64,000 nucleotides of DNA, taken from Myxococcales bacterium. GTDB taxonomy: Bacteria; Myxococcota; Myxococcia; Myxococcales; Myxococcaceae. Where the stretch lies: NCBI GenBank assembly GCA_030696265.1, contig JAUYSO010000017.1:72368-136367 (forward strand), read 5' to 3'. Numbering within the stretch: position 1 is the stretch's first letter; every line of letters begins with the position of its first letter. The position numbers and the translations under genes were made by a program. The notes below the pieces were generated by a model. That model was not told the DNA's origin and did not search any database. It was given only the letters and a program-made list of their open reading frames with translations. Positions 45,216 through 53,455 of this stretch are shown in pieces.

Positions 45216-46229
45216 TCACCACTGCTCGGGCGTCGGCTCCTTCGCGGCTTTTCGCTCGATCGTGCTGTCTCGGTACGCCGAGCTGCGAGCGCGCATCATC
45301 GCGCCGAGGGGCCGGAACTCGACGGGCGCGTGCCACGGGTCGAACGAGAAAGACTCGACGAGCGCCGACAGCGCCCTGCCCTGCTCGCTCCCCGGGTCCT
45401 GCACCGGCACGGAGACGTCGGCGATGTCGGTCCACGGCGATTCCCACACCTTCGTCGGATCTTCGATGGGCGTCTGCGCTTCGCTCTCGAACGGCTGAAT
45501 GCGCAGCGCCCACTTCAGCGGAGCGGCCGTCACACGCGCGCGCACGTCATCGGCGAAGCGCGTGTGCTCGTTCGTCACCGGCGTCGCAGGCTTCGGAGGA
45601 TTCACCGGCACGAAGCCGTACTTCACCGCCGCGTCGCCCCAGCGAATCGGGAGCACGGAGTAGAACGGCTGCTCGACCATCGAGTCGACGCGCTCGGCCA
45701 TGCCCTTCTGCAGCACGCCGAGCACTCGAAAGGCATCGAGCCCGAGCGTTCCCAGAATGCGGGGCAAGGCGAGCAGCTTCGGCCCGTTCGCGGCGCGCAC
45801 CACGCCGACGAAGTCTCCCGGCGTCTTGAACGGCATCGACTGCGTGAGGATGCCGAGGAAGTCCATCGTGGGCGCGGCCTCCATGCCGGGGATGAGCTTG
45901 GTGCCACCCACGCCGGTCATTTTCAGCGCGAGCCCGCGCACGTCGGGCGCCTTGTCGCTCGCGTGCACCGGACTGCCATTCGAGAGCCGCAGCCACGCCT
46001 TGAACGTCGCAGGCGCCGCGAACGGCCCGACGCGCGCCCACTCGGGCAACCCGTCACGCACCGTCACCTCGGCCTTGAGCCCGACGTGCTGCTTCGCGTG
46101 GAGCGCGCGGCTGACGCTCCCGTGCGCCTTCTCTTTGGCGCGCTGCACCTCACGCAGCACGGCAGCGAGGCCGTCGAACAGCGCTCGCTCGTTGGGGGCG
46201 ACGACTTCTTTCCAATCAGTGGCGGGCAT
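45216..46229 (-). CDS. Catalase-related haem protein (small catalase-family/peroxidase-like)
   Basis: Catalase distal-site motif RALHAKQHVG; APDVRGLALK; proximal Tyr region RARSSAYRDS. About 337 aa from the internal ATG at 46229. Confidence 0.7.
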   Translation of the reverse strand: MPATDWKEVVAPNERALFDGLAAVLREVQRAKEKAHGSVSRALHAKQHVGLKAEVTVRDGLPEWARVGPFAAPATFKAWLRLSNGSPVHASDKAPDVRGLALKMTGVGGTKLIPGMEAAPTMDFLGILTQSMPFKTPGDFVGVVRAANGPKLLALPRILGTLGLDAFRVLGVLQKGMAERVDSMVEQPFYSVLPIRWGDAAVKYGFVPVNPPKPATPVTNEHTRFADDVRARVTAAPLKWALRIQPFESEAQTPIEDPTKVWESPWTDIADVSVPVQDPGSEQGRALSALVESFSFDPWHAPVEFRPLGAMMRARSSAYRDSTIERKAAKEPTPEQW

Positions 46230-46308
46230 GCGGCGCCTTCCACACCACCCTCGCCACTCGAGCAAGCCGCTTTCTTGAGCGCGGCCACAGCGTCGCTACC
46301 CTGTGCGC

Positions 46309-46761
46309 ATGGACAAGCACTTCCTCGCCATGCAGCTGCAGACGAAGCTCCGCGCGGCGTACGAGACGGCGTTGCGCTACGCCGAAGACGCCCGGGTCGA
46401 TGCCCAGTCGGGCGCGCCACGCGCGGTGAACATCGCCTCGGCCGCGAAGACGCGCCTGCAGGCCGCCGAGGCGTCGTGGGCCGCCGCCGCCGACTTCAAG
46501 CCCGTGCCGCTGAAGAAGGGCTCGCTCATCGGCCTGGGTGCGCTCGTCGAGGTCGAAGACGGTGACGCGGGCAAGACGCTCTTCGTCGCTCCGGCGGGCG
46601 CAGGTGAAGAGCTCACCGGGCCTGATGGAGACGGCTTTCTGCACGTGGTGACGCCCGGCTCGCCGCTCGGCAAGGCCCTCGTCGGCCGCAAGGTGGGCGA
46701 CGTCGTCGAGGTGATGGTGAAGGGCGAGCTCGCCGAGTGGGAGATCACCTGGGCGTCGTGA
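46309..46761 (+). CDS. GreA/GreB-family elongation factor-like protein
   Basis: C-terminal FKBP-like Gre domain (VVTPGSPLGKALVGRKVGDVVEV...GELAEWEI). The N-terminal helical hairpin lacks the conserved acidic tip residues. 150 aa. Confidence 0.65.
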   Translation: MDKHFLAMQLQTKLRAAYETALRYAEDARVDAQSGAPRAVNIASAAKTRLQAAEASWAAAADFKPVPLKKGSLIGLGALVEVEDGDAGKTLFVAPAGAGEELTGPDGDGFLHVVTPGSPLGKALVGRKVGDVVEVMVKGELAEWEITWAS

Positions 46762-46764
46762 GCG

Positions 46765-48186
46765 CTACCTGATGAGCGCGTCGATGGGCACAGGCGACTG
46801 GTTCGAGATGTGCCCGAACGACAGCCCCATCGACTTCAGCAGCGTCGCGTGAACGTCAGGCGGGCGAATCACGTTGCCGCTCGCCGCGTTGAGGGCGCCG
46901 TTCGCGAAGTTCCACTTCGTCACACCCATGCCGGTGTTGGTCGACGCGCCGAAGACGGTGTTGCCCCTGATGCCGGGGCCCGCCACGAGGCAGCTCGAGA
47001 CGAGGTGGTGATCGCGGCCTTCACGCGTGTTGATCATCGGCGTGCGCGAGAACTCGCTGAACACCATCAGGTTGGTGCACTGCCACATGTTCTTCGCGGT
47101 GCCCGGCGCCTGCTTCGTCTTGAGGTACGCGATGAGGCGGCCGAGCGCGTCGAAGCCGGTGCGCAGCGACGCCGGCTGCTGCGTCGACCAGTCGAAGTGG
47201 TCGTCGAGGTCTTCGCCGAGGGTGACGGAGACGACCTGTGAGACGCCGCTCGCGAGCGCCTGCGCCGCGACGGCCGCACGGCCACGAGGCCCGGTGAGGT
47301 CGGATGCGGTGGTGAGGCCGAATGCGCTGAAGAGGTCGGTCAGCGGCGCTGGCGGCGGCAGCACGAAGTTGAACAGCGAGGCCTTCGTGGGGTTCATCAG
47401 GTTGCGGCCGAGCGCGCGCGCGTCTTTGAACGCGTCGGTCAGCCCGTTGGCGTTGAAGCCGTGCGCCGTGCACGAGTCGGGCGTCGTCATCTCGTACGAG
47501 GTGAGCGCGGTGTTCGAGGCGGCGGGCAACGTGGCGCCGGCCTGCGGCTGCATGACGGTGAGCAGGTCGCGGAAGCTGGCGACGCTGACCGCGCTCGCGC
47601 TCGGAGGCAGACCTTCGTTGTAGGTCTCGACGTTCATCGCCAGGTTCGGCACGTCGGTCTGCGCGCCCATCTGCGCGGCGAACGCGGTGTTGAGGCTCGA
47701 GCCCGACGCGACGAGGCCGCGGGGGAACTTGCCGGTGATGAGGTACCGGCGGCCCACCTCGTGGGTCAGCGTGTCCATCTGCATGCCGCGAATGATGGCG
47801 AGGTCGGGCGCGTGCTGGAGGAGCGACTGCGGCACCGCGGGACCGAAGGAGAGGTTGCCGCTCGTCTGAACGCCCGAGCCGCCCGTCGCGGTCAGCACCT
47901 GGGCCACGCCCGTGTCGTCGGCGCCGGCGAGATCGTACGCAGGCTGAATACGCGTCGCCGGTGCGCGGCCGGCGATGACCTGGAACTGCGGGTCGTTCTG
48001 CGGCCGGGGGTCGAGCGCGAGCAGCTGGTCCCACCCGCCCGCGAAGTAGACGACGAGCAGGTACTTCGGGTCGCCGCCCGCCTGCGCGAAGGCCTGGCTG
48101 CCGAGCGGCGACTGCTGAAGGACGAGGCCTCCACCGGCCACGCTGAGGATCTCGAGGAAGTTGCGACGCGAGAGGGAAGGCTTCAT
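46765..48186 (-). CDS. Tat-exported DUF1501-type (sulfatase-like) protein
   Basis: Twin-arginine signal (SRRNFLEILSVAGGGLVL). YFAGGWDQLLALDPRP resembles the DUF1501 GGxSQxDTFDPKP block. 473 aa. Confidence 0.6.
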   Translation of the reverse strand: MKPSLSRRNFLEILSVAGGGLVLQQSPLGSQAFAQAGGDPKYLLVVYFAGGWDQLLALDPRPQNDPQFQVIAGRAPATRIQPAYDLAGADDTGVAQVLTATGGSGVQTSGNLSFGPAVPQSLLQHAPDLAIIRGMQMDTLTHEVGRRYLITGKFPRGLVASGSSLNTAFAAQMGAQTDVPNLAMNVETYNEGLPPSASAVSVASFRDLLTVMQPQAGATLPAASNTALTSYEMTTPDSCTAHGFNANGLTDAFKDARALGRNLMNPTKASLFNFVLPPPAPLTDLFSAFGLTTASDLTGPRGRAAVAAQALASGVSQVVSVTLGEDLDDHFDWSTQQPASLRTGFDALGRLIAYLKTKQAPGTAKNMWQCTNLMVFSEFSRTPMINTREGRDHHLVSSCLVAGPGIRGNTVFGASTNTGMGVTKWNFANGALNAASGNVIRPPDVHATLLKSMGLSFGHISNQSPVPIDALIR

Positions 48187-48205
48187 GGCGGTCGTCTCGT
48201 GTGAA

Positions 48206-48964
48206 TCAGTAGAGGTGGTACTCAGGAGCCATCAGGAGCGCGACGCACACGGTGCGCCACCCTTCCCTCACGTGCGCGGCGGTCGGCGTCGCAGTGCCGG
48301 CAGCCCCCTTCACGGCGTCGTCGAACAGCTTGCGCAGCGGCGCCAGCGTCGCGTCGTCACCCGCCGCGACCTTCATGCCGTGGAAGCGCAGCTTGAGGTG
48401 CATCAGGTTCTGGTCGATGGCCGTGCGGTTGGTCGCCAGCGTGTCGGTCAACGAGACCGTCTTGTAGAGCACACGCAGGTTGGGGGCCTTCGTCTGGTCG
48501 GCCGTGACGGTGCGGGTGCACGCGTCCTTGGCGGCGTCGTCCATGAACTTCAGGAAGAGCGACGACGGCTCGAGGTTCTCGTCGACGACCGAGATGTAGT
48601 CGGGCTCGCCCAGCGTGCGGCTGCGGCTGGTGAAGCCGTTCGTGTTCCCCACCATCCACGTCGAGCCGCCGAGCGCGATGGTCATCGAGTTCGCGAGCTG
48701 CCGAACCGACAGGCGCTGCGAGCCGGCAGACGCCGGGCCCGTCATCACCATGCCGCCACCAGCCGAGCCACCACCGGCAGCGCCGCCACCCGACGCTCCA
48801 CCACCCGCGCCGCCCCCGAGAATCGCAGGGTGGTCGAACGGCAACGCCGGGCCGTCAGGCGTGATGACGATCGACGGGTCCTTCACCACCGGCGGCGGCT
48901 CCACGGGCGCCTGGGTGCACGCGCCCAACACCACCACCAGACACCCAGCGCTCAAGCGCTTCAT
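48206..48964 (-). CDS. Hypothetical lipoprotein with a Gly-rich linker
   Basis: Start at the internal ATG 48964 (MKRLSAGCLVVVLGACTQ lipobox), poly-Gly linker, 253 aa. The upstream part of the ORF-track entry is Arg/His-rich junk. Confidence 0.55.
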   Translation of the reverse strand: MKRLSAGCLVVVLGACTQAPVEPPPVVKDPSIVITPDGPALPFDHPAILGGGAGGGASGGGAAGGGSAGGGMVMTGPASAGSQRLSVRQLANSMTIALGGSTWMVGNTNGFTSRSRTLGEPDYISVVDENLEPSSLFLKFMDDAAKDACTRTVTADQTKAPNLRVLYKTVSLTDTLATNRTAIDQNLMHLKLRFHGMKVAAGDDATLAPLRKLFDDAVKGAAGTATPTAAHVREGWRTVCVALLMAPEYHLY

Positions 48965-50592
48965 CGGACCCTCCGGTACTGCGGCTGCGTGACGATCTGC
49001 TCGACGAGCCACGGCAGGCTGTAGTTGTTCGTCTTGAAGCCGGCAGAGAGCGACTCGAGCGTCGCGAGCTCGTCGGTCGCGGCTCCCGAGATGCGCATGT
49101 CGCGCTTCATGAGGCTCGTCCACGCGCGCTTCACGGTGCAGCGGGCGAAGGTGCCGTTGGCGAGCGACTCGTTGACGCGCTTGCGAGGGCCGCCGGCGAG
49201 CGCGCTGGTGATGTCGGGGTGCTGCGCATCGGCGAACTGGTACGGCAGCAGCGCGCCCTTGTTGTCGGCGTCGTTGCTCGTCACGTAGAAGCGGTTGCAG
49301 ATGGCGTTGGAGCTGCCCACGCAGTTGGTCCGCATGCGGGGCCACGCGGTGAGGTCGGTCAGCAGCGAGGTGCCGGCCTCGGCGAACTGGCCCCAGTGAC
49401 TCGACAGCGGCTCGAGGCCCCGGTGGCAGCCACGGCACGTGCAGCGCCTCGTCAAGTCGTCGGAGTCGGCCGAGCAGTTGTCGGCGGCCGGCTCTTCGAG
49501 GCGAGACGGCGGCACGTACGACTCACACTCGAAGTCGACGCGGTAGCGGTTGCCACGCGCACGGTTCGTCTGAAAGCGCAGCAGGTAGGCCATCGAGGTC
49601 AACGCACCGGCGTGCAGGTCCGAGCCGCGGTCGACGGTGGTCCACGTCGTGTCCGAGAACGGCTTGGCCACTGCGGGCTCCGTCGGGTCGGGGATCGACC
49701 AGATGCGGTTGACCGACAGGTTCGCGGCGAGGTCGCGCTTCCAGTGCGCGAGCGGGCCGTTGACGGGCACGCTGCGGGTCAGCACCAGGTCGGTGTACGG
49801 CTGGCCGCCGGTCGAGACGCGGTCGACGAGCAGGTTGAGCTGCTCACGCGCCGAGCTCGCGATGACGCTGCGCACCGCAGCCGTCGGCCCGAAGCAGAAC
49901 TTGAGGCCGGCGCCACACCCGCAGGCGATGTTGCCGTTGGTCTCGTAGTGGCCGCACGACAGCGTGCGCGCGGCGGTGCCCGTGCCGATGGTGACGGTCT
50001 CGGTCTCTTGCGCGTCGTAGGCGCAGACCTTGATGGGCGTGGTCGACCAGTACGGCGTCACCATGCGCCAGCCCTCTTGCCGGACCGTGACGGTGCCCAC
50101 CACCGTGGTGCGAATGCCGGCCGGGTCGGGGCGGAAGCCGCCACCGGGCAGGAACATCGTCTGCTGAAAGTCACCGCACTGCAGGCCGTGCGTGGTGTTG
50201 GCGTCGCTGACGCCGCGGAAGGTGCGGCGACGGCCCGTCGAGCTCAACGAGTTCACCTCGGGGGGGTTGCCCGCCGTGGTGAGCTGCGAGTTGACGTTGT
50301 TGAGCGCGAGGTTGCTGATGTTCGGCCAGAACAGCTCTTCGTGGTACCGGCGCATCACCAGGCGGAAGTCGTCGCTCCCGAGGTACGCGCGAATCACCGA
50401 CGCCGGCACTGCGGTCTCGGTCTCGAGGGCCTCGTACTCGGTGACGTCGGGAATGCGGCCGCGCAGGTCGAGCGAGAGGCGGCGCAGCTCCTGGTACTTG
50501 TCGATGGCGCGGGGCTGCTGGCACTCGGCCGCCGTCTGGGCGAACGCGGTGGCCGTCAGCGCCAGCACGAGAGTGAAGACGGCTCGTCGCAT
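48961..50592 (-). CDS. Secreted cysteine-rich protein with a CxxCH motif (putative partner of the DUF1501 protein)
   Basis: Signal peptide (MRRAVFTLVLALTATAFAQ). Cys clusters (CGCGAGLKFC; CTCRGCH). 544 aa. The family assignment (DUF1549/1553/DUF1800-like) could not be made by eye. Confidence 0.55.
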   Translation of the reverse strand: MRRAVFTLVLALTATAFAQTAAECQQPRAIDKYQELRRLSLDLRGRIPDVTEYEALETETAVPASVIRAYLGSDDFRLVMRRYHEELFWPNISNLALNNVNSQLTTAGNPPEVNSLSSTGRRRTFRGVSDANTTHGLQCGDFQQTMFLPGGGFRPDPAGIRTTVVGTVTVRQEGWRMVTPYWSTTPIKVCAYDAQETETVTIGTGTAARTLSCGHYETNGNIACGCGAGLKFCFGPTAAVRSVIASSAREQLNLLVDRVSTGGQPYTDLVLTRSVPVNGPLAHWKRDLAANLSVNRIWSIPDPTEPAVAKPFSDTTWTTVDRGSDLHAGALTSMAYLLRFQTNRARGNRYRVDFECESYVPPSRLEEPAADNCSADSDDLTRRCTCRGCHRGLEPLSSHWGQFAEAGTSLLTDLTAWPRMRTNCVGSSNAICNRFYVTSNDADNKGALLPYQFADAQHPDITSALAGGPRKRVNESLANGTFARCTVKRAWTSLMKRDMRISGAATDELATLESLSAGFKTNNYSLPWLVEQIVTQPQYRRVR

Positions 50593-50621
50593 GGTCCCTC
50601 CGGGAATCGAAACAGTCGTGC

Positions 50622-51845
50622 TCATGGCAACATCCCTCCCTGCACCCACCGCGCGAGCACGGCGTACTGGCTGGGACGCAGCAGGCCCGAGCTCGCAGGA
50701 GGCATCGGCGTGTCGCCGTTCTCGGCGCGGGCCAACGACTGCACGGCCCACTGCTTCGCTTTGGCGTAGGTGGCGAAGTCGATGATGGGTGCGTAGTTCG
50801 CGCCCGAGCGGTGGCAGCTCACACAGTGCGCCGTGAAGAAGGGCTTCACGTCGGCGAAGACGACCGGCTGCTCCTCAGCCGTCGTCGCGAGGCGCTCGAG
50901 CGTCTGCCCATCGAGGGTGAAGATGGCGCCCGCGGTATCTCGCACCACGCCGCTCACCACCGGGGCCGCGACGTCACCGAGCACCTTCACCTCGTCGACC
51001 AGCATCGAGAACAGCTGCCCGTTCGACTGCACCAGCGCGCCGTCACCATCGACGGCGACGTCAGTCACGGCAGCGGCGGCCCCGAAGAGCATCAGCGAGA
51101 CGTCGTTCGACGGCGCCACGCGCACCAGGCCGTCGGTGGTGGCGAAGACGACGTGGCCATCACCCAGGCGCGCGCTCTGCGTCACGGCCCCGAGGCCCTT
51201 CGCGAGCACGGTCACCTTCGGGGCGGCGACCTCGACGAGGTACAGGCGCTCGCCTCGCACGACCACCGCGGTCGACGCGTCACGTCCGACGACGGCCTTC
51301 AGCAGGCCGCTGCCGTTCGGGTCGTCGAGCTCGATGGAGTCGAGCGCGCCACCCGACACCCGCAACAGCGCGGCGTCGGTGCGCACCCACCACGTCTCGG
51401 CGACACCCTCGCCAACGACGTCGATGGCCTTCACCTGCGGCAGCGGCAGCGAATCAGAGATGGGCGAGCGGAGCAGCCGGCCCGCGCGCTCGAGGAACAC
51501 GCCCGTCGACGTCAGCCAGAGCGACGCCGCGCCGCGACGGCCGATGAGGCGCACCGTGCCGAGGGAGTCAGCGCCCATCGGACCGACGGGAACCGGCGTC
51601 ATCGTGGTGCCGGTGCGAACGGCCACGCCGTCGATGGCGACGACCGCGACCTGGCCCGAGACCAGCGACAGCCCCACCGCAGAGACCGACGACATCACCG
51701 TCGACGACATCGGACGCGTGGTGTCGACAGGCGTGACGGTCACCCGCGTCAGCGCGGGCGGCTCGACCGGCGCGGGCGGCGGCATGATGATCTGCCCCGG
51801 CGCGCAGGCCGCAAACACGACGAAGGAGAACAGGAGTGCTCGCAT
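50622..51845 (-). CDS. Lipoprotein with a C-terminal cytochrome-c-like (PSCyt1-type CxxCH...MPP) domain
   Basis: Start at the internal ATG 51845 (MRALLFSFVVFAACAPGQ lipobox). C-terminus FFTAHCVSCHRSGANYAPI...GDTPMPP matches the planctomycete-type cytochrome c domain pattern. 407 aa. Confidence 0.6.
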   Translation of the reverse strand: MRALLFSFVVFAACAPGQIIMPPPAPVEPPALTRVTVTPVDTTRPMSSTVMSSVSAVGLSLVSGQVAVVAIDGVAVRTGTTMTPVPVGPMGADSLGTVRLIGRRGAASLWLTSTGVFLERAGRLLRSPISDSLPLPQVKAIDVVGEGVAETWWVRTDAALLRVSGGALDSIELDDPNGSGLLKAVVGRDASTAVVVRGERLYLVEVAAPKVTVLAKGLGAVTQSARLGDGHVVFATTDGLVRVAPSNDVSLMLFGAAAAVTDVAVDGDGALVQSNGQLFSMLVDEVKVLGDVAAPVVSGVVRDTAGAIFTLDGQTLERLATTAEEQPVVFADVKPFFTAHCVSCHRSGANYAPIIDFATYAKAKQWAVQSLARAENGDTPMPPASSGLLRPSQYAVLARWVQGGMLP

Positions 51846-52030
51846 CGGACGTGACGTAAAGCAAGCCGGCGGCCAGGCACTTTCATCAAGTGATTCAGGC
51901 TGTTGGGCGCTCCCGACCCGCACGCAGCCTGGCGCCTGGCACGTCGAGGCGCACGCAGTCGTCCTCTGGCTGAGGACAGACTCCACAGCCCTCGAGGCCC
52001 TTCCGCACACTGTCAGCGCTGAGATACACC

Positions 52031-53455
52031 GTGCGCATGGCGGAGCTCGACCTCGACGCGCTGTCCCGGCACCCGGTGGTTCGGAAGCTGACCGAGAAGG
52101 TGAAGGACAGCCTGGGCCTGACGTTCCTGTTCGTCTCTCCGAAGGCGCGGGTCGAGGGCATTCCGTCGGGGCAGTACATGCCGACGAACAACGCGCTGTG
52201 TACGCGCATCTGCACCGACCGGAAGAAGGGCATGAAGGCGTGCCTGTCGGCGGGCACCGCGCTGTTCGCGGCGAAGCGGCTGTCGTCGGGCGACTTCACG
52301 CAGAAGCCCTGTCACATCGGCCTGCAGACCCTCGGAGCGCCCATCGTCGTCGACGGCCAGTTCCTCGGCGTCATCGCCACCTGCGGCTTCATGCGCGCCG
52401 AGCACGTCTTCGAAGAAGAACAGGCCGTCGCCCATCGCGCGGCACGGCAAGGCTGGGCGCCGGGCTTCGACGAGGCGCTCTCGCAGCTCCGTCAGACGCC
52501 ATCACTCAACGTGCGCGAGGTGCGCATCGCCGCCGACCTGATGCAGCTGCTCGTCGAGCAGCTCATTCACTTCTCGCGCTCGAGCGAAGCCGACGCCGAG
52601 GCCTTGCAGCGCGCGTGGCAGGCGCTCGAGGTGTCGTGTCCCGAGTCGCCGCTCATCGGAGACTCCGAGGCGATGCGGGCGGTCGCCGCCGTGGTGGAGC
52701 GCTCTGCCTCCAAGCGCCTCCCGACGCTCATCAGCGGCCCGCAAGGCGCGGGCGCGACGCACCTGTCTCGGCACCTGCACCGCGCTGGAGGTTTTCTGCG
52801 CACGCCCTTCGTCAGCCTCGAGGCGCGCGACGGCGTGACGACCGTGAAGGGGCTCTTGCGCAAGGGCTTCACCGGCACGCTGGTGCTCGAGCACCTCGAG
52901 CGCGCGTCCGCCTCCACCGTCGACGAACTGGTCGAGCTGATGCGCACCAGGCCCGACGTGTTCTGGGTCAGCACCACGCGCGGGCCGCTCGAGCCGAACG
53001 TCGCCGCGGCCGTGGGCGTCGTGCAGGTGACGCTGCCTCCGTTGAGCGCGCGCCCGCAAGACGTGGCGGCGCTGGCCGACTCGCTCATCTCGAAGCTGGG
53101 AACGTCTCTCACCGTCTCGCCCTCGGTGCTTTCGGCGCTCGAGCGGTACGGCTGGCCCGGCAACGTCGCCGAGCTCGAGGCCGTGCTCCGGCGCGCGCTC
53201 GCGCTTGGAGGGCTGTCGCTCGCGCACCTGCCGAGGGAGCTCGCCATTCTCTCGGCCCGCACGCGGCGCCGCGCCGGGTTTCATGACGAGGTGCTGCAGT
53301 TCAAGACCGAGCTGGTCGCCGAGACGCTCCAGCGCACCAACGGCAACGTCAGCCAGGCCGCGCGCGAGCTGGGCCTGCAGCGCACGTATCTGCACCGGCT
53401 GATGAACGAGCTCGGCGTGCACCCGCAGCGTGAAGAGAAGGTCGCTCCGAGCTGA
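52031..53455 (+). CDS. PocR-sensor domain plus degenerate sigma-54-activator-like AAA+ domain plus Fis-type HTH regulator
   Basis: N-terminal PocR-like region (Cys-containing, GLTFLFVSPK...CTRIC). Central domain with atypical Walker A GPQGAGAT and GWPGNVAELE, but no GAFTGA loop. C-terminal HTH (NGNVSQAARELGLQRTYLHRLM). Confidence 0.7.
   Translation: MRMAELDLDALSRHPVVRKLTEKVKDSLGLTFLFVSPKARVEGIPSGQYMPTNNALCTRICTDRKKGMKACLSAGTALFAAKRLSSGDFTQKPCHIGLQTLGAPIVVDGQFLGVIATCGFMRAEHVFEEEQAVAHRAARQGWAPGFDEALSQLRQTPSLNVREVRIAADLMQLLVEQLIHFSRSSEADAEALQRAWQALEVSCPESPLIGDSEAMRAVAAVVERSASKRLPTLISGPQGAGATHLSRHLHRAGGFLRTPFVSLEARDGVTTVKGLLRKGFTGTLVLEHLERASASTVDELVELMRTRPDVFWVSTTRGPLEPNVAAAVGVVQVTLPPLSARPQDVAALADSLISKLGTSLTVSPSVLSALERYGWPGNVAELEAVLRRALALGGLSLAHLPRELAILSARTRRRAGFHDEVLQFKTELVAETLQRTNGNVSQAARELGLQRTYLHRLMNELGVHPQREEKVAPS

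Follow-up and report, generated by a model that had tools for sequence, protein, structure and literature searches.

A putative split, σ54-driven Myxococcota variant of the DUF1501 and PSCyt/PSD module, predicted to encode an envelope ester hydrolase with a dedicated electron carrier

In PVC bacteria, genes for DUF1501 proteins with Tat signals lie beside PSCyt1, PSCyt2, and PSD1 genes; in this module, described from Planctomycetes, Verrucomicrobia, and Lentisphaerae, the DUF1501 protein has a secreted CxxCH partner, the system includes a cytochrome c domain, the clusters contain up to four genes, and the function is uncharacterised (Kamneva et al. 2012, PMC3542564). The DUF1501 and PSCyt/PSD proteins are among the most abundant uncharacterised families of Planctomycetes and Verrucomicrobia and have been flagged since 2004-2012 as an unexplained "conserved machinery" (PMC3542564, PMC5615132). 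PSCyt2 and PSCyt3 genes each have a neighbour from an uncharacterised family of their own, and a link with carbohydrates has been suggested (PMC5615132); proteins with the arrangement PSD3-PSD5-PSD4-PSCyt3-PSD2 (DUF1587/1595/1592/1588/1585) are usually encoded beside the second of these families (He et al. 2017, PMC5615132). DUF1501 genes are also paired with DUF1800 genes in Proteobacteria and other groups (PMC5122149). We read the operon described here as a new, split, σ54-driven Myxococcota variant of the DUF1501 and PSCyt/PSD module, whose product would probably be an ester hydrolase of the envelope that works with an electron carrier of its own.

The operon lies in the window, the whole stretch of 64,000 nucleotides that was analysed, of which 21.4 kb is 100% identical to Logan assembly contig SRR13727522; the NCBI MAG contig JAUXZV010000023.1 is 98.9% identical to the window, and a protein identical to g1 (P0291) is present in an NCBI MAG record. 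The initial annotation had described four consecutive minus-strand genes, and all four open reading frames, with the motifs ascribed to them, are present between 46765 and 51845. The first, g4 (50622..51845), encodes a lipoprotein of 407 aa in which a variable N-terminal domain (∼320 aa) is followed by a monohaem cytochrome c domain; g3 (48961..50592) encodes a Cys-rich, Sec-exported protein of 543 aa (554 aa if started at 50625); g2 (48206..48964) encodes a lipoprotein of 252 aa that contains a Gly-rich linker and, at its C terminus, a conserved domain of ∼175 aa; and g1 (46765..48186) encodes a Tat-exported DUF1501 protein of 473 aa that has the fold of the alkaline phosphatase superfamily and is predicted to be the catalytic subunit. 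Genes g4 and g3, and likewise g3 and g2, share an ATGA in which the start codon of one overlaps the stop codon of the other, and 19 nt separate g2 from g1. Because homologues are numerous and the named motifs are invariant across the families, g1 to g4 are real genes and not chance open reading frames.

A σ54-type promoter element, TGGCCGCCGGCTTGC (−24 GG, −12 GC; 51861..51875, minus strand), ends 15 nt before the ATG of g4, which implies a leader of only ∼5 nt. The TGGC-N7-TTGC site of the window is not significant alone, as the window contains 2 matches where 1.8 would be expected; of 50 homologous loci, however, 26 have the strict form of this site no more than 130 nt upstream of g4, against 0.1 expected, and the sequence surrounding it is not conserved. 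The conserved promoter is found upstream of g4 only.

The gene order g3-g2-g1 is kept in all 56 Myxococcota MAG loci with enough flanking sequence, down to ∼31% identity in g3; the same order is present in the more distant members L073 and L075. The DUF1501 gene adjoins the partner gene in the same 56 loci and in L073, L074, and L075. Thus g3, g2, and g1 always co-occur and in the same order. That four unrelated genes should be adjacent by chance has next to no probability: this possibility is refuted by the conservation of gene order, and the overlapping start and stop codons, the fusion of g3 with g2 in another genome, and the restriction of the promoter to g4 also stand against it. All carrier genomes found so far are uncultured MAGs, and they have one or two copies of the system, whereas PVC genomes contain large paralogous families (PMC3542564). 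The genes flanking the loci give no hint of the substrate.

The assignment of the 473-residue protein to DUF1501 by the initial annotation is borne out, g1 scoring 81.2 bits with PF07394 (cut-off 27) through a match of residues 41-456 to profile positions 2-364 of 390. Homologues of g1 number 530, and every one listed has a precomputed PF07394 assignment. HXXSHH (DUF1552), the family that accompanies the PSD3-PSD5-PSD4-PSCyt3-PSD2 proteins, gives only a stray match to g1 (E 0.067). The expected Tat signal is also seen, as the motif SRRNFLE (48151..48171, minus strand, translation): twin arginines occur in 37 of 37 homologues, with Arg7, Arg8, and Leu11 invariant and Phe10 and Glu12 nearly so, and the TIGR01409 score of g1 is 14.4 bits (E 0.037), under the cut-off of 16.7 bits. 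The protein has the α/β core fold that is common to NPP, alkaline phosphatase, and the sulfatases, and the structure that matches it best is that of an NPP-type phosphodiesterase. The topological positions of the metal ligands and nucleophile of the alkaline phosphatase superfamily are taken by invariant Asp, Thr, and His residues. Thus g1 belongs to DUF1501, is marked for Tat export, and has the fold of the alkaline phosphatase superfamily. It should be noted that its identity with NPP/PafA-type phosphoesterases (PDB 7mw8, 5too, 4lr2) is only 11-18%, and that similarity of g1 to PDB chains is not detectable at the sequence level; g1 also differs in the large helical insertions present in the model (residues 205-312), and the NPP/PafA enzymes act alone, with neither a cytochrome nor a partner subunit.

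The description of g1 as sulfatase-like in the initial annotation stands for the fold but not for the chemistry. A formylglycine-type sulfatase accompanied by maturation or helper proteins is very improbable: the formylglycine motif [CS]xPxR is absent anywhere in g1, the nucleophile position lies in the invariant sequence DTLTHE and is taken by an invariant Thr, and the operon encodes neither a formylglycine-generating enzyme nor a radical-SAM maturase. That reading is disfavoured on these three grounds.

The initial annotation had also predicted a Cys-rich secreted protein with CTCRGCH and a Gly-linker lipoprotein, both of which were recognised, in g3 and g2. The family of g3 is large, with at least 279 homologues in a word-indexed search and 1649 cluster representatives at E ≤ 1e-3. 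The Sec signal of g3 is MRRAVFTLVLALTATAFAQ, and CTCRGCH (49423..49443, minus strand, translation) is a CxCxxCH motif, a candidate site of haem c attachment or metal binding, that is present in 31 of 31 sequences, with Cys383, Cys385, Cys388, His389, Leu392, and Pro394 invariant; it is retained in the most distant relatives (P0262, P0241, P0200, and L069). Pfam matches along g3 occur in the order PSCyt2 N terminus, PSD4, PSCyt3, and PSD2, the last overlapping PSD1 at its start and DUF1800 in part. These matches are collinear in up to 31 of 31 members, but nearly all are under the gathering score, the sole exception being PSD2. With PSCyt2/DUF1549 (PF07583), window g3 scores 19 bits (E 1.4e-3; positions 13-74 of 209; cut-off 29.8), and 31 of 31 members match at E ≤ 0.1 with a top score of 29.6 bits; on this evidence g3 is remotely homologous to the N-terminal third of the PSCyt2 model only. 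With PSD1/DUF1553 (PF07587), it scores 10.1 bits (E 0.51; positions 13-83 of 244; cut-off 28.5), and 6 of 31 members match at E ≤ 0.1. PSCyt3/DUF1588 (PF07627) matches 12 of 31 members at E ≤ 0.1 with 13-17 bits, under its cut-off of 27, and the matching region includes CxCxxCH. PSD2/DUF1585 (PF07624) has no match in window g3 but matches 16 of 31 members at E ≤ 0.1, and its cut-off of 25.8 bits is exceeded by P0066 (28.0), P0099 (27.1), and P0200 (32). The C-terminal ∼70 residues of the family give weak matches to DUF1800 (profile positions 224-292).

The g3 protein is thus remotely related to the PSCyt2/PSD4/PSCyt3/PSD2 set of modules; the initial annotation of the neighbours as PSCyt/PSD-like holds for remote, collinear kinship, but nearly all the matches fall short of the Pfam cut-offs and the architecture is mixed. 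It is a hybrid, and its profile matches look nearer to the usual partner of DUF1552 than to a plain DUF1549-DUF1553 protein. Like the PSD3-PSD5-PSD4-PSCyt3-PSD2 proteins, it has weak collinear matches to the PSD4 C terminus, to PSCyt3 (CxxCH..[DE]P), and to the whole of PSD2, and the C terminus of g2 weakly matches PSD5; unlike them, its enzyme neighbour is DUF1501 and not DUF1552, its N terminus is PSCyt2-like, and the gene for the PSD5-like module follows that of the main protein, where in those proteins the module precedes the PSD4-like region. The likeness to the DUF1800 and DUF1501 pairs (PMC5122149) lies in a Tat-exported DUF1501 protein with an adjacent secreted partner and in the weak DUF1800 matches, but g3 is far richer in Cys and has CxCxxCH, and a dedicated electron carrier gene is present.

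The lipoprotein g2 has the lipobox LGAC and the linker GGGAGGGASGGGAAGGGSAGGG, and its gene is found after g3 in 56 of 56 loci. In P0262 a g2 domain is fused to the C terminus of a g3-like protein (residues 626-800, E 4e-39), with no signal peptide between the two; g2 is thus a detachable C-terminal module of a g3-type protein. The PSD5/DUF1595 (PF07637) matches to g2 are weak (5 of 33 members, best E 1e-3, cut-off of 34.2 bits not reached), those scored having 13-15 bits over the last ∼50 residues (profile positions 17-59 of 62). With g2 as a detached piece and the cytochrome on a lipoprotein of its own, the initial proposal that the modules are split over separate polypeptides was confirmed. 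The outcome named as refuting the initial annotation, a 473-residue protein outside DUF1501 with neighbours devoid of PSCyt-like domains, did not come about.

The lipobox of g4 is FAAC, and Cys14 is invariant among homologues. The class I cytochrome c domain (50625..50879, minus strand) contains CVSCH at 50811-50825 and, in MPP at 50697-50705, a candidate axial Met; CxxCH is present in 39 of 39 sequences, its two Cys and its His being invariant together with a Trp, and Met-Pro in at least 90%. Cytochrome_CBB3 (PF13442) matches 36 of 39 members (best E 5.7e-8), window g4 itself scoring 24.6 bits, just short of the 27-bit cut-off, and the family profile matches cytochrome c6 (4gyd) across the whole domain with E 4.8e-5. 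Some homologues are named "mono/diheme cytochrome c family protein" by JGI. Where a cytochrome c of the planctomycete type had been proposed, the HCVSCH/MPP domain is present but the type is not upheld: PSCyt1 (PF07635) matches 1 of 39 members (E 0.094) and gives no match to the window copy. From these profile matches, the C-terminal domain of g4 is a generic class I cytochrome c, predicted to bind haem, which shares CxxCH and the distal Met-Pro with other monohaem cytochromes c of this class but is attached to a lipoprotein part of ∼320 aa. The Myxococcota system thus resembles the PVC module (PMC3542564) in its Tat-exported DUF1501 protein beside a secreted CxxCH partner with PSCyt2/PSD-type regions, in its cytochrome c domain, in its four genes, and in being uncharacterised; it differs in that the cytochrome is a separate lipoprotein that is not PSCyt1 by HMM, g3 is under the PSCyt2 and PSD1 cut-offs with most of both models missing, g2 is an extra small lipoprotein that has been split off, the promoter is of the σ54 type, and the hosts are Myxococcota MAGs.

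A CxxCH protein homologous to g4 abuts g3 in 54 of 61 loci, and in two more, L068 and L069, a tandem Rieske [2Fe-2S] protein (E 2e-20 and 3e-23) stands in its place, so that a redox protein lies directly beside g3 in 56 of 61. The Rieske replacement supports an electron-carrier role for this slot, which can be filled by cytochrome c or a tandem Rieske protein or be empty, as in the three-gene forms L041, L054, L055, L073, L074, and L075. In these forms the redox partner is dispensable or encoded elsewhere, which counts against a coupled redox explanation, as does the point that no alkaline-phosphatase-superfamily enzyme is known to need a cytochrome.

A possible mechanism can be outlined as follows. 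The g1 protein would fold and load its metals in the cytoplasm before leaving by Tat, and g3 would leave by Sec and gain its disulfides in the periplasm, whereas g2 and g4 would be lipid-anchored and tether the complex to the membrane, probably the outer membrane, given that both lack a retention residue at position +2. The catalytic subunit, g1, would have an NPP/PafA-like two-metal site (Asp53, Asp329/His330, Asp392/His393, and His446) and, as nucleophile, a Thr (Thr141 or Thr139) at the N terminus of the helix after the second core strand; it would cleave a phosphate or sulfate ester through a covalent phospho- or sulfo-threonine intermediate, as opposed to formylglycine chemistry. In such a complex, g3 and g2 may be the substrate-binding or capping partner of g1, and the g4 haem (Cys341, Cys344, His345, Met381) would pass single electrons to or from it, perhaps by way of a further haem or metal site in the CxCxxCH motif of g3, so that ester cleavage would be coupled to, or gated by, a redox step, the coupling being on the same substrate. 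The composite proposal that the four genes are a single σ54-transcribed operon with coupled translation, and that their products form an enzyme complex of the DUF1501 and PSCyt/PSD class in the cell envelope that works by this mechanism, is a tentative one, with slightly less in its favour than against it.

Alternatively, the complex may be a plain nutrient-scavenging envelope phosphodiesterase or phosphatase in which all the chemistry is performed by g1, g3 and g2 bind or escort the substrate, CxCxxCH is a structural disulfide or metal site, and the cytochrome or Rieske protein is an accessory outside catalysis, for example in sensing or stability. NPP and PafA are the closest folds to g1, partner-free forms occur, the fold of g3 resembles that of no cytochrome, and DUF1501 and DUF1800 pairs are widespread. 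To our knowledge the DUF1800 partners have no haem motif, which speaks against electron transfer being indispensable for the chemistry of DUF1501. However, a redox protein abuts g3 in nearly all loci, the exchange of cytochrome for Rieske preserves the property of an electron carrier alone, CxCxxCH stays invariant out to the most distant relatives, and the partner protein of PVC bacteria carries the cytochrome domain as a fusion (PMC3542564). Such a hydrolase is possible but rather doubtful.

It is unlikely that the complex is a periplasmic dehydrogenase and not a hydrolase, in which g1 would bind a reduced or esterified oxyanion-type substrate and g3 and g4 would hand the released electrons on to the respiratory chain. 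Dedicated, co-transcribed carriers such as the class I cytochrome c or the Rieske protein, both of typically high-potential types, are characteristic of periplasmic substrate dehydrogenases; Tat export of g1 fits a redox-active metal centre loaded in the cytoplasm, and Escherichia coli alkaline phosphatase is able to oxidise phosphite. Against this, no alkaline-phosphatase-superfamily enzyme is known to be coupled to a cytochrome, the operon has no protein with flavin, molybdopterin, or another two-electron cofactor, and forms without a redox partner occur. A similarly low probability is given to the broader proposal that DUF1501 and PSCyt/PSD systems, the split Myxococcota form among them, constitute a novel class of redox-coupled enzymes with the alkaline phosphatase fold. 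A subunit with the Thr and two metals would act jointly with a Cys-rich partner that bears haem, either oxidising an oxyanion-type substrate, esterified or reduced, or cleaving it reductively, and a dedicated cytochrome c or Rieske subunit would deliver the electrons to the respiratory chain; if this is true, a protein family that is among the largest uncharacterised ones of Planctomycetes and Verrucomicrobia would gain its first function. The Myxococcota form is a minimal, low-copy system with its modules on separate proteins, and it therefore offers three comparative insights that the fused PVC proteins deny, namely an interchangeable carrier slot, a detachable small lipoprotein, and a defined σ54 promoter; its split parts are clean targets for expression, haem analysis, and reconstitution.

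A divergent PocR-domain regulator (52031..53455, plus strand) is a possible local regulator of the operon, its membership of the system being uncertain. It has PocR (E 4.4e-13), AAA_lid_14, and HTH_8 domains, but Sigma54_activat spans profile positions 1-57 of 168 only, the Walker A sequence is GPQGAGAT with no Lys, and KGFTG is found where GAFTGA is expected. Because of these changes, and because there is no open reading frame with an intact GAFTGA anywhere in the window, the activator of the σ54-type promoter must be encoded elsewhere. The initial annotation of a divergent PocR-type regulator is thus correct as to the PocR domain, but the AAA+ region is degenerate, and the gene is a neighbour of the operon in the closest clade only (L004, L006-L010, and L027).

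All four of the consecutive minus-strand genes that the initial annotation claimed at 46765–51845 are present, and the motif coordinates of g1–g4 were all verified by translation. They comprise g4 (50622–51845, 407 aa, N terminus MRALLFSFVVFAAC), a cytochrome c lipoprotein with the C terminus HCVSCH...MPP...W; g3 (48961–50592, 543 aa, N terminus MRRAVFTLVLALTATAFAQ), a Cys-rich protein containing CTCRGCH; g2 (48206–48964, 252 aa, N terminus MKRLSAGCLVVVLGAC), a small lipoprotein with a 22-residue Gly-rich linker; and g1 (46765–48186, 473 aa, N terminus MKPSLSRRNFLE), a DUF1501 protein. The genes form an operon, with ATGA overlaps at the g4/g3 and g3/g2 junctions and a spacing of 19 nt between g2 and g1. 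If g3 is instead read from another ATG, at 50625, the product is 554 aa long, and a GGAGGG Shine-Dalgarno sequence is also found 5' of the ATG at 50592. The GC content is ∼0.69 throughout the window, which is matched by a Logan assembly contig (100% identity over 21.4 kb) and by the NCBI MAG contig JAUXZV010000023.1 (98.9% identity). Scans of 46200–52200 for σ70 promoters and intrinsic terminators found none.

The identity and fold of g1 are clear, and a protein identical to it carries the NCBI label [quoted passage not shown]; an NCBIfam scan returned the Tat signal and otherwise added nothing. Residues that are invariant among 37 homologues include Asp53, Thr139, Thr141, His142, Asp328, Asp329, and His330, as well as Asp392, His393, His394, Asp444, and His446. 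In the predicted secondary structure, Asp53 comes after the first core strand, Thr139 and Thr141 lie at the N terminus of the helix that follows strand 129–136, and the DDH triplet comes after strand 318–327; these would be the metal-ligand and nucleophile positions known in the superfamily. The earlier description of g1 as sulfatase-like holds for its fold alone, since g1 lacks the formylglycine motif [CS]xPxR, and the closer resemblance is to Thr-nucleophile, two-metal enzymes of the NPP/PafA type.

None of the homologues of g3, of which there are at least 279, has a functional name, and a profile built from 31 of them retrieves 1649 cluster representatives at E ≤ 1e-3. The alignment contains 15 invariant Cys and the invariant motif R-C-x-C-x-x-C-H-x-x-L-E/D-P. 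By itself, the protein in the window has matches to just two models, PSCyt2 (19 bits, E 1.4e-3) and PSD1 (E 0.51), but a clearer picture comes from a Pfam scan in which each of the 31 members was searched singly. PSCyt2 (DUF1549) is then matched by 31/31 members (best E 6e-7), PSD2 (DUF1585) by 16 (best E 1.8e-6), PSCyt3 (DUF1588) by 12 (best E 0.0093), PSD1 (DUF1553) by six (best E 0.002), PSD4 (DUF1592) by five (best E 0.027), and DUF1800 by one (E 0.019); the PSD2 cut-off is passed by three g3 relatives, two of them within the alignment. The matches are collinear along g3: residues ∼20–95 align with positions 12–80 of 209 in PSCyt2, residues ∼235–287 with 81–125 of 128 in PSD4, residues ∼343–414, which include CxCxxCH, with 29–94 of 98 in PSCyt3, and residues ∼466–548 with 6–72 of 74 in PSD2, the last stretch being shared with PSD1 (16–83) and DUF1800 (224–289). 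A 1048-aa protein from the representative search (P0200), in which 660 N-terminal residues resembling a molybdopterin oxidoreductase with Tat export precede the last two thirds of a g3-like protein, was set aside as a possible chimeric assembly; the alternative is that the fusion is real but unusual.

The g2 protein of the window has no Pfam or NCBIfam match. Its homologues from related loci all end in ...GW[RH]xVCVALLTxPE[FY]HLY, and weak matches to PSD5 (DUF1595) occur in 5 of 33 (best E 1e-3); when 10 sequences were re-scanned, three matched PSD5 with their last ∼50 residues (profile 17–59 of 62, 13–15 bits). The relationship of g2 to g3 is seen in an 800-aa homologue, P0262 (locus L074, 1672–4074, GCA_036496765.1), in which the g2 domain (residues 626–800, E 4e-39) is joined directly to a g3-like C terminus (..SPEYRGVSDRSPRRLSGEQL..) and a DUF1501 gene follows immediately. 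The lack of a signal peptide where the two parts meet suggests that the g3–g2 fusion is genuine, and g2 is therefore a detachable module of a g3-type protein. The proposal that the modules are split over separate polypeptides in the window is borne out by this fusion and by the location of the cytochrome on a protein of its own.

Scanning a single genome for each species identified 66 loci with the g3 family, all in MAGs of Myxococcota or under older labels for the same group; cultured isolates and cultured myxobacterial species representatives are not among the 66, but it should be noted that a pattern-based scan may miss divergent copies. The order g3, g2, g1 is present in all 56 loci with enough flanking sequence, and the association of the three genes is thus obligate. 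Some MAGs contain two paralogous clusters (L025 and L061, L024 and L059, L045 and L067, L032 and L040), the copies of which are divergent, those at L061 and L059 having ∼32–34% g3 identity. Among the flanking genes, no family is shared between clades; only kinases and clade-specific synteny were found, and these provide no clue to the substrate.

The C-terminal 85 residues of g4 are a class I cytochrome c domain; all of 39 sequences have its CxxCH and a Trp, and at least 90% have Met-Pro. Cytochrome_CBB3 is matched by 36/39 members (best E 5.7e-8) and Cytochrom_C by 22/39, and the family profile aligns with cytochrome c6 (4gyd) over the entire domain (E 4.8e-5). The cytochrome had been thought to be of the planctomycete type, an assignment that is not upheld, PSCyt1 being matched by only 1/39 members (E 0.094). 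The N-terminal ∼320 residues of g4 are fast-evolving, and no match to them was found. An open reading frame with a C-terminal CxxCH adjoins g3 upstream in 54/61 loci. Equivalents of g4 with non-canonical haem motifs are a 150-aa lipoprotein with CSASGCH (CX4CH; L002, 7552–8004) and a protein with CANSCH (CX3CH; L048, 2–466). A single frame that covers g4-like and g3-like genes (L061, 660–3650) was rejected as a fusion: after GDMPRC it departs from its orthologue at L059 and the g3 signal peptide is then in frame, which suggests a probable frameshift in an assembly of long reads. At the position upstream of the g3-like gene, two distant Myxococcota/Polyangiales loci instead have a tandem Rieske [2Fe-2S] protein with an RR-type signal, a lipobox, and two PF00355 domains (L068, 5234–6274, and L069, 5797–6858, both on the plus strand; E 2e-20 and 3e-23). 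Cytochrome and Rieske proteins thus interchange in this position, and the swap is the strongest argument for an electron-transfer role. No redox gene is found in this position in L041, L054, L055, L073, and L075, and these partner-less forms, together with pairs of DUF1501 and DUF1800 proteins, which are not known to carry haem motifs, argue most strongly against an essential role of electron transfer.

These features are consistent with a mechanism in which g1 would be loaded with metal and then exported by the Tat system, g3 would be exported by the Sec system before disulfide formation, and g2 and g4 would be lipid-anchored. The Thr/two-metal site of g1 would act on a phosphate or sulfate ester, with g3 and g2 as the putative substrate-binding partner, and single-electron transfer might proceed via g4, possibly relayed by the CxCxxCH motif of g3.

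The nearest described system is the module of DUF1501 and PSCyt1/PSCyt2/PSD1 genes of Planctomycetes, Verrucomicrobia, and Lentisphaerae, which has Tat signals, up to four genes per cluster, and no assigned function (PMC3542564). Genes for PSCyt2 and PSCyt3 each adjoin a distinct unknown family of their own, and a link with carbohydrates has been suggested (PMC5615132). No functional study of the DUF1501, DUF1800, or PSCyt/PSD families was found in the literature searched. We rate the present cluster as a Myxococcota variant of this module type. It differs in its hosts, in having its modules on separate proteins, in the hybrid domain make-up of the partner protein, in a cytochrome that is generic rather than PSCyt1, and in a promoter of the σ54 type.

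The σ54-type element, TGGCCGCCGGCTTGC, is located upstream of g4 at 51861–51875 on the minus strand, with 15 nt between its end and the ATG. The window by itself has two σ54 motif matches versus 1.8 expected, which is not significant; across loci the motif is significant, since 26/50 have a strict TGGC-N7-TTGC in the 130 nt preceding g4, versus 0.1 expected, in flanking sequence that is otherwise unconserved. TTGC is 12–18 nt from the g4 ATG in most motif-bearing loci (the window and 25 others), so that the leader would be very short, ∼4–7 nt, with no Shine-Dalgarno sequence; this implies a near-leaderless transcript from the predicted σ54 promoter. The divergent regulator (52031–53455, plus strand) has a PocR domain, as noted previously, together with a truncated σ54-activator domain, AAA_lid_14, and HTH_8. 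Its adjacency to the cluster is confined to the closest clade. The AAA+ domain of the regulator is degenerate, with a Walker A sequence (GPQGAGAT) that lacks the lysine, KGFTG where GAFTGA is expected, LVLEHLE as Walker B, and ∼60 residues absent; judged from these motifs, it is probably unable to activate σ54 itself and is an unlikely activator of the operon. Because of this degeneracy and the limited adjacency, and because no open reading frame in the 64-kb window contains GAFTGA, the true activator is probably encoded elsewhere.

On the other side of the cluster, a gene convergent with g1 (46303–46761, plus strand) encodes a small protein that has the C-terminal domain of GreA/GreB (E 3e-8), and its reading frame ends 4 nt away from the stop codon of g1; homologues close to the cluster were restricted to L024 and L025. 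A further open reading frame (45216–46265, minus strand; 337–349 aa) has no Pfam match at E ≤ 0.01 and contains catalase-like motifs recognized by eye (RALHAKQHVG and RLSNGS); it may encode a small catalase-related haem protein.
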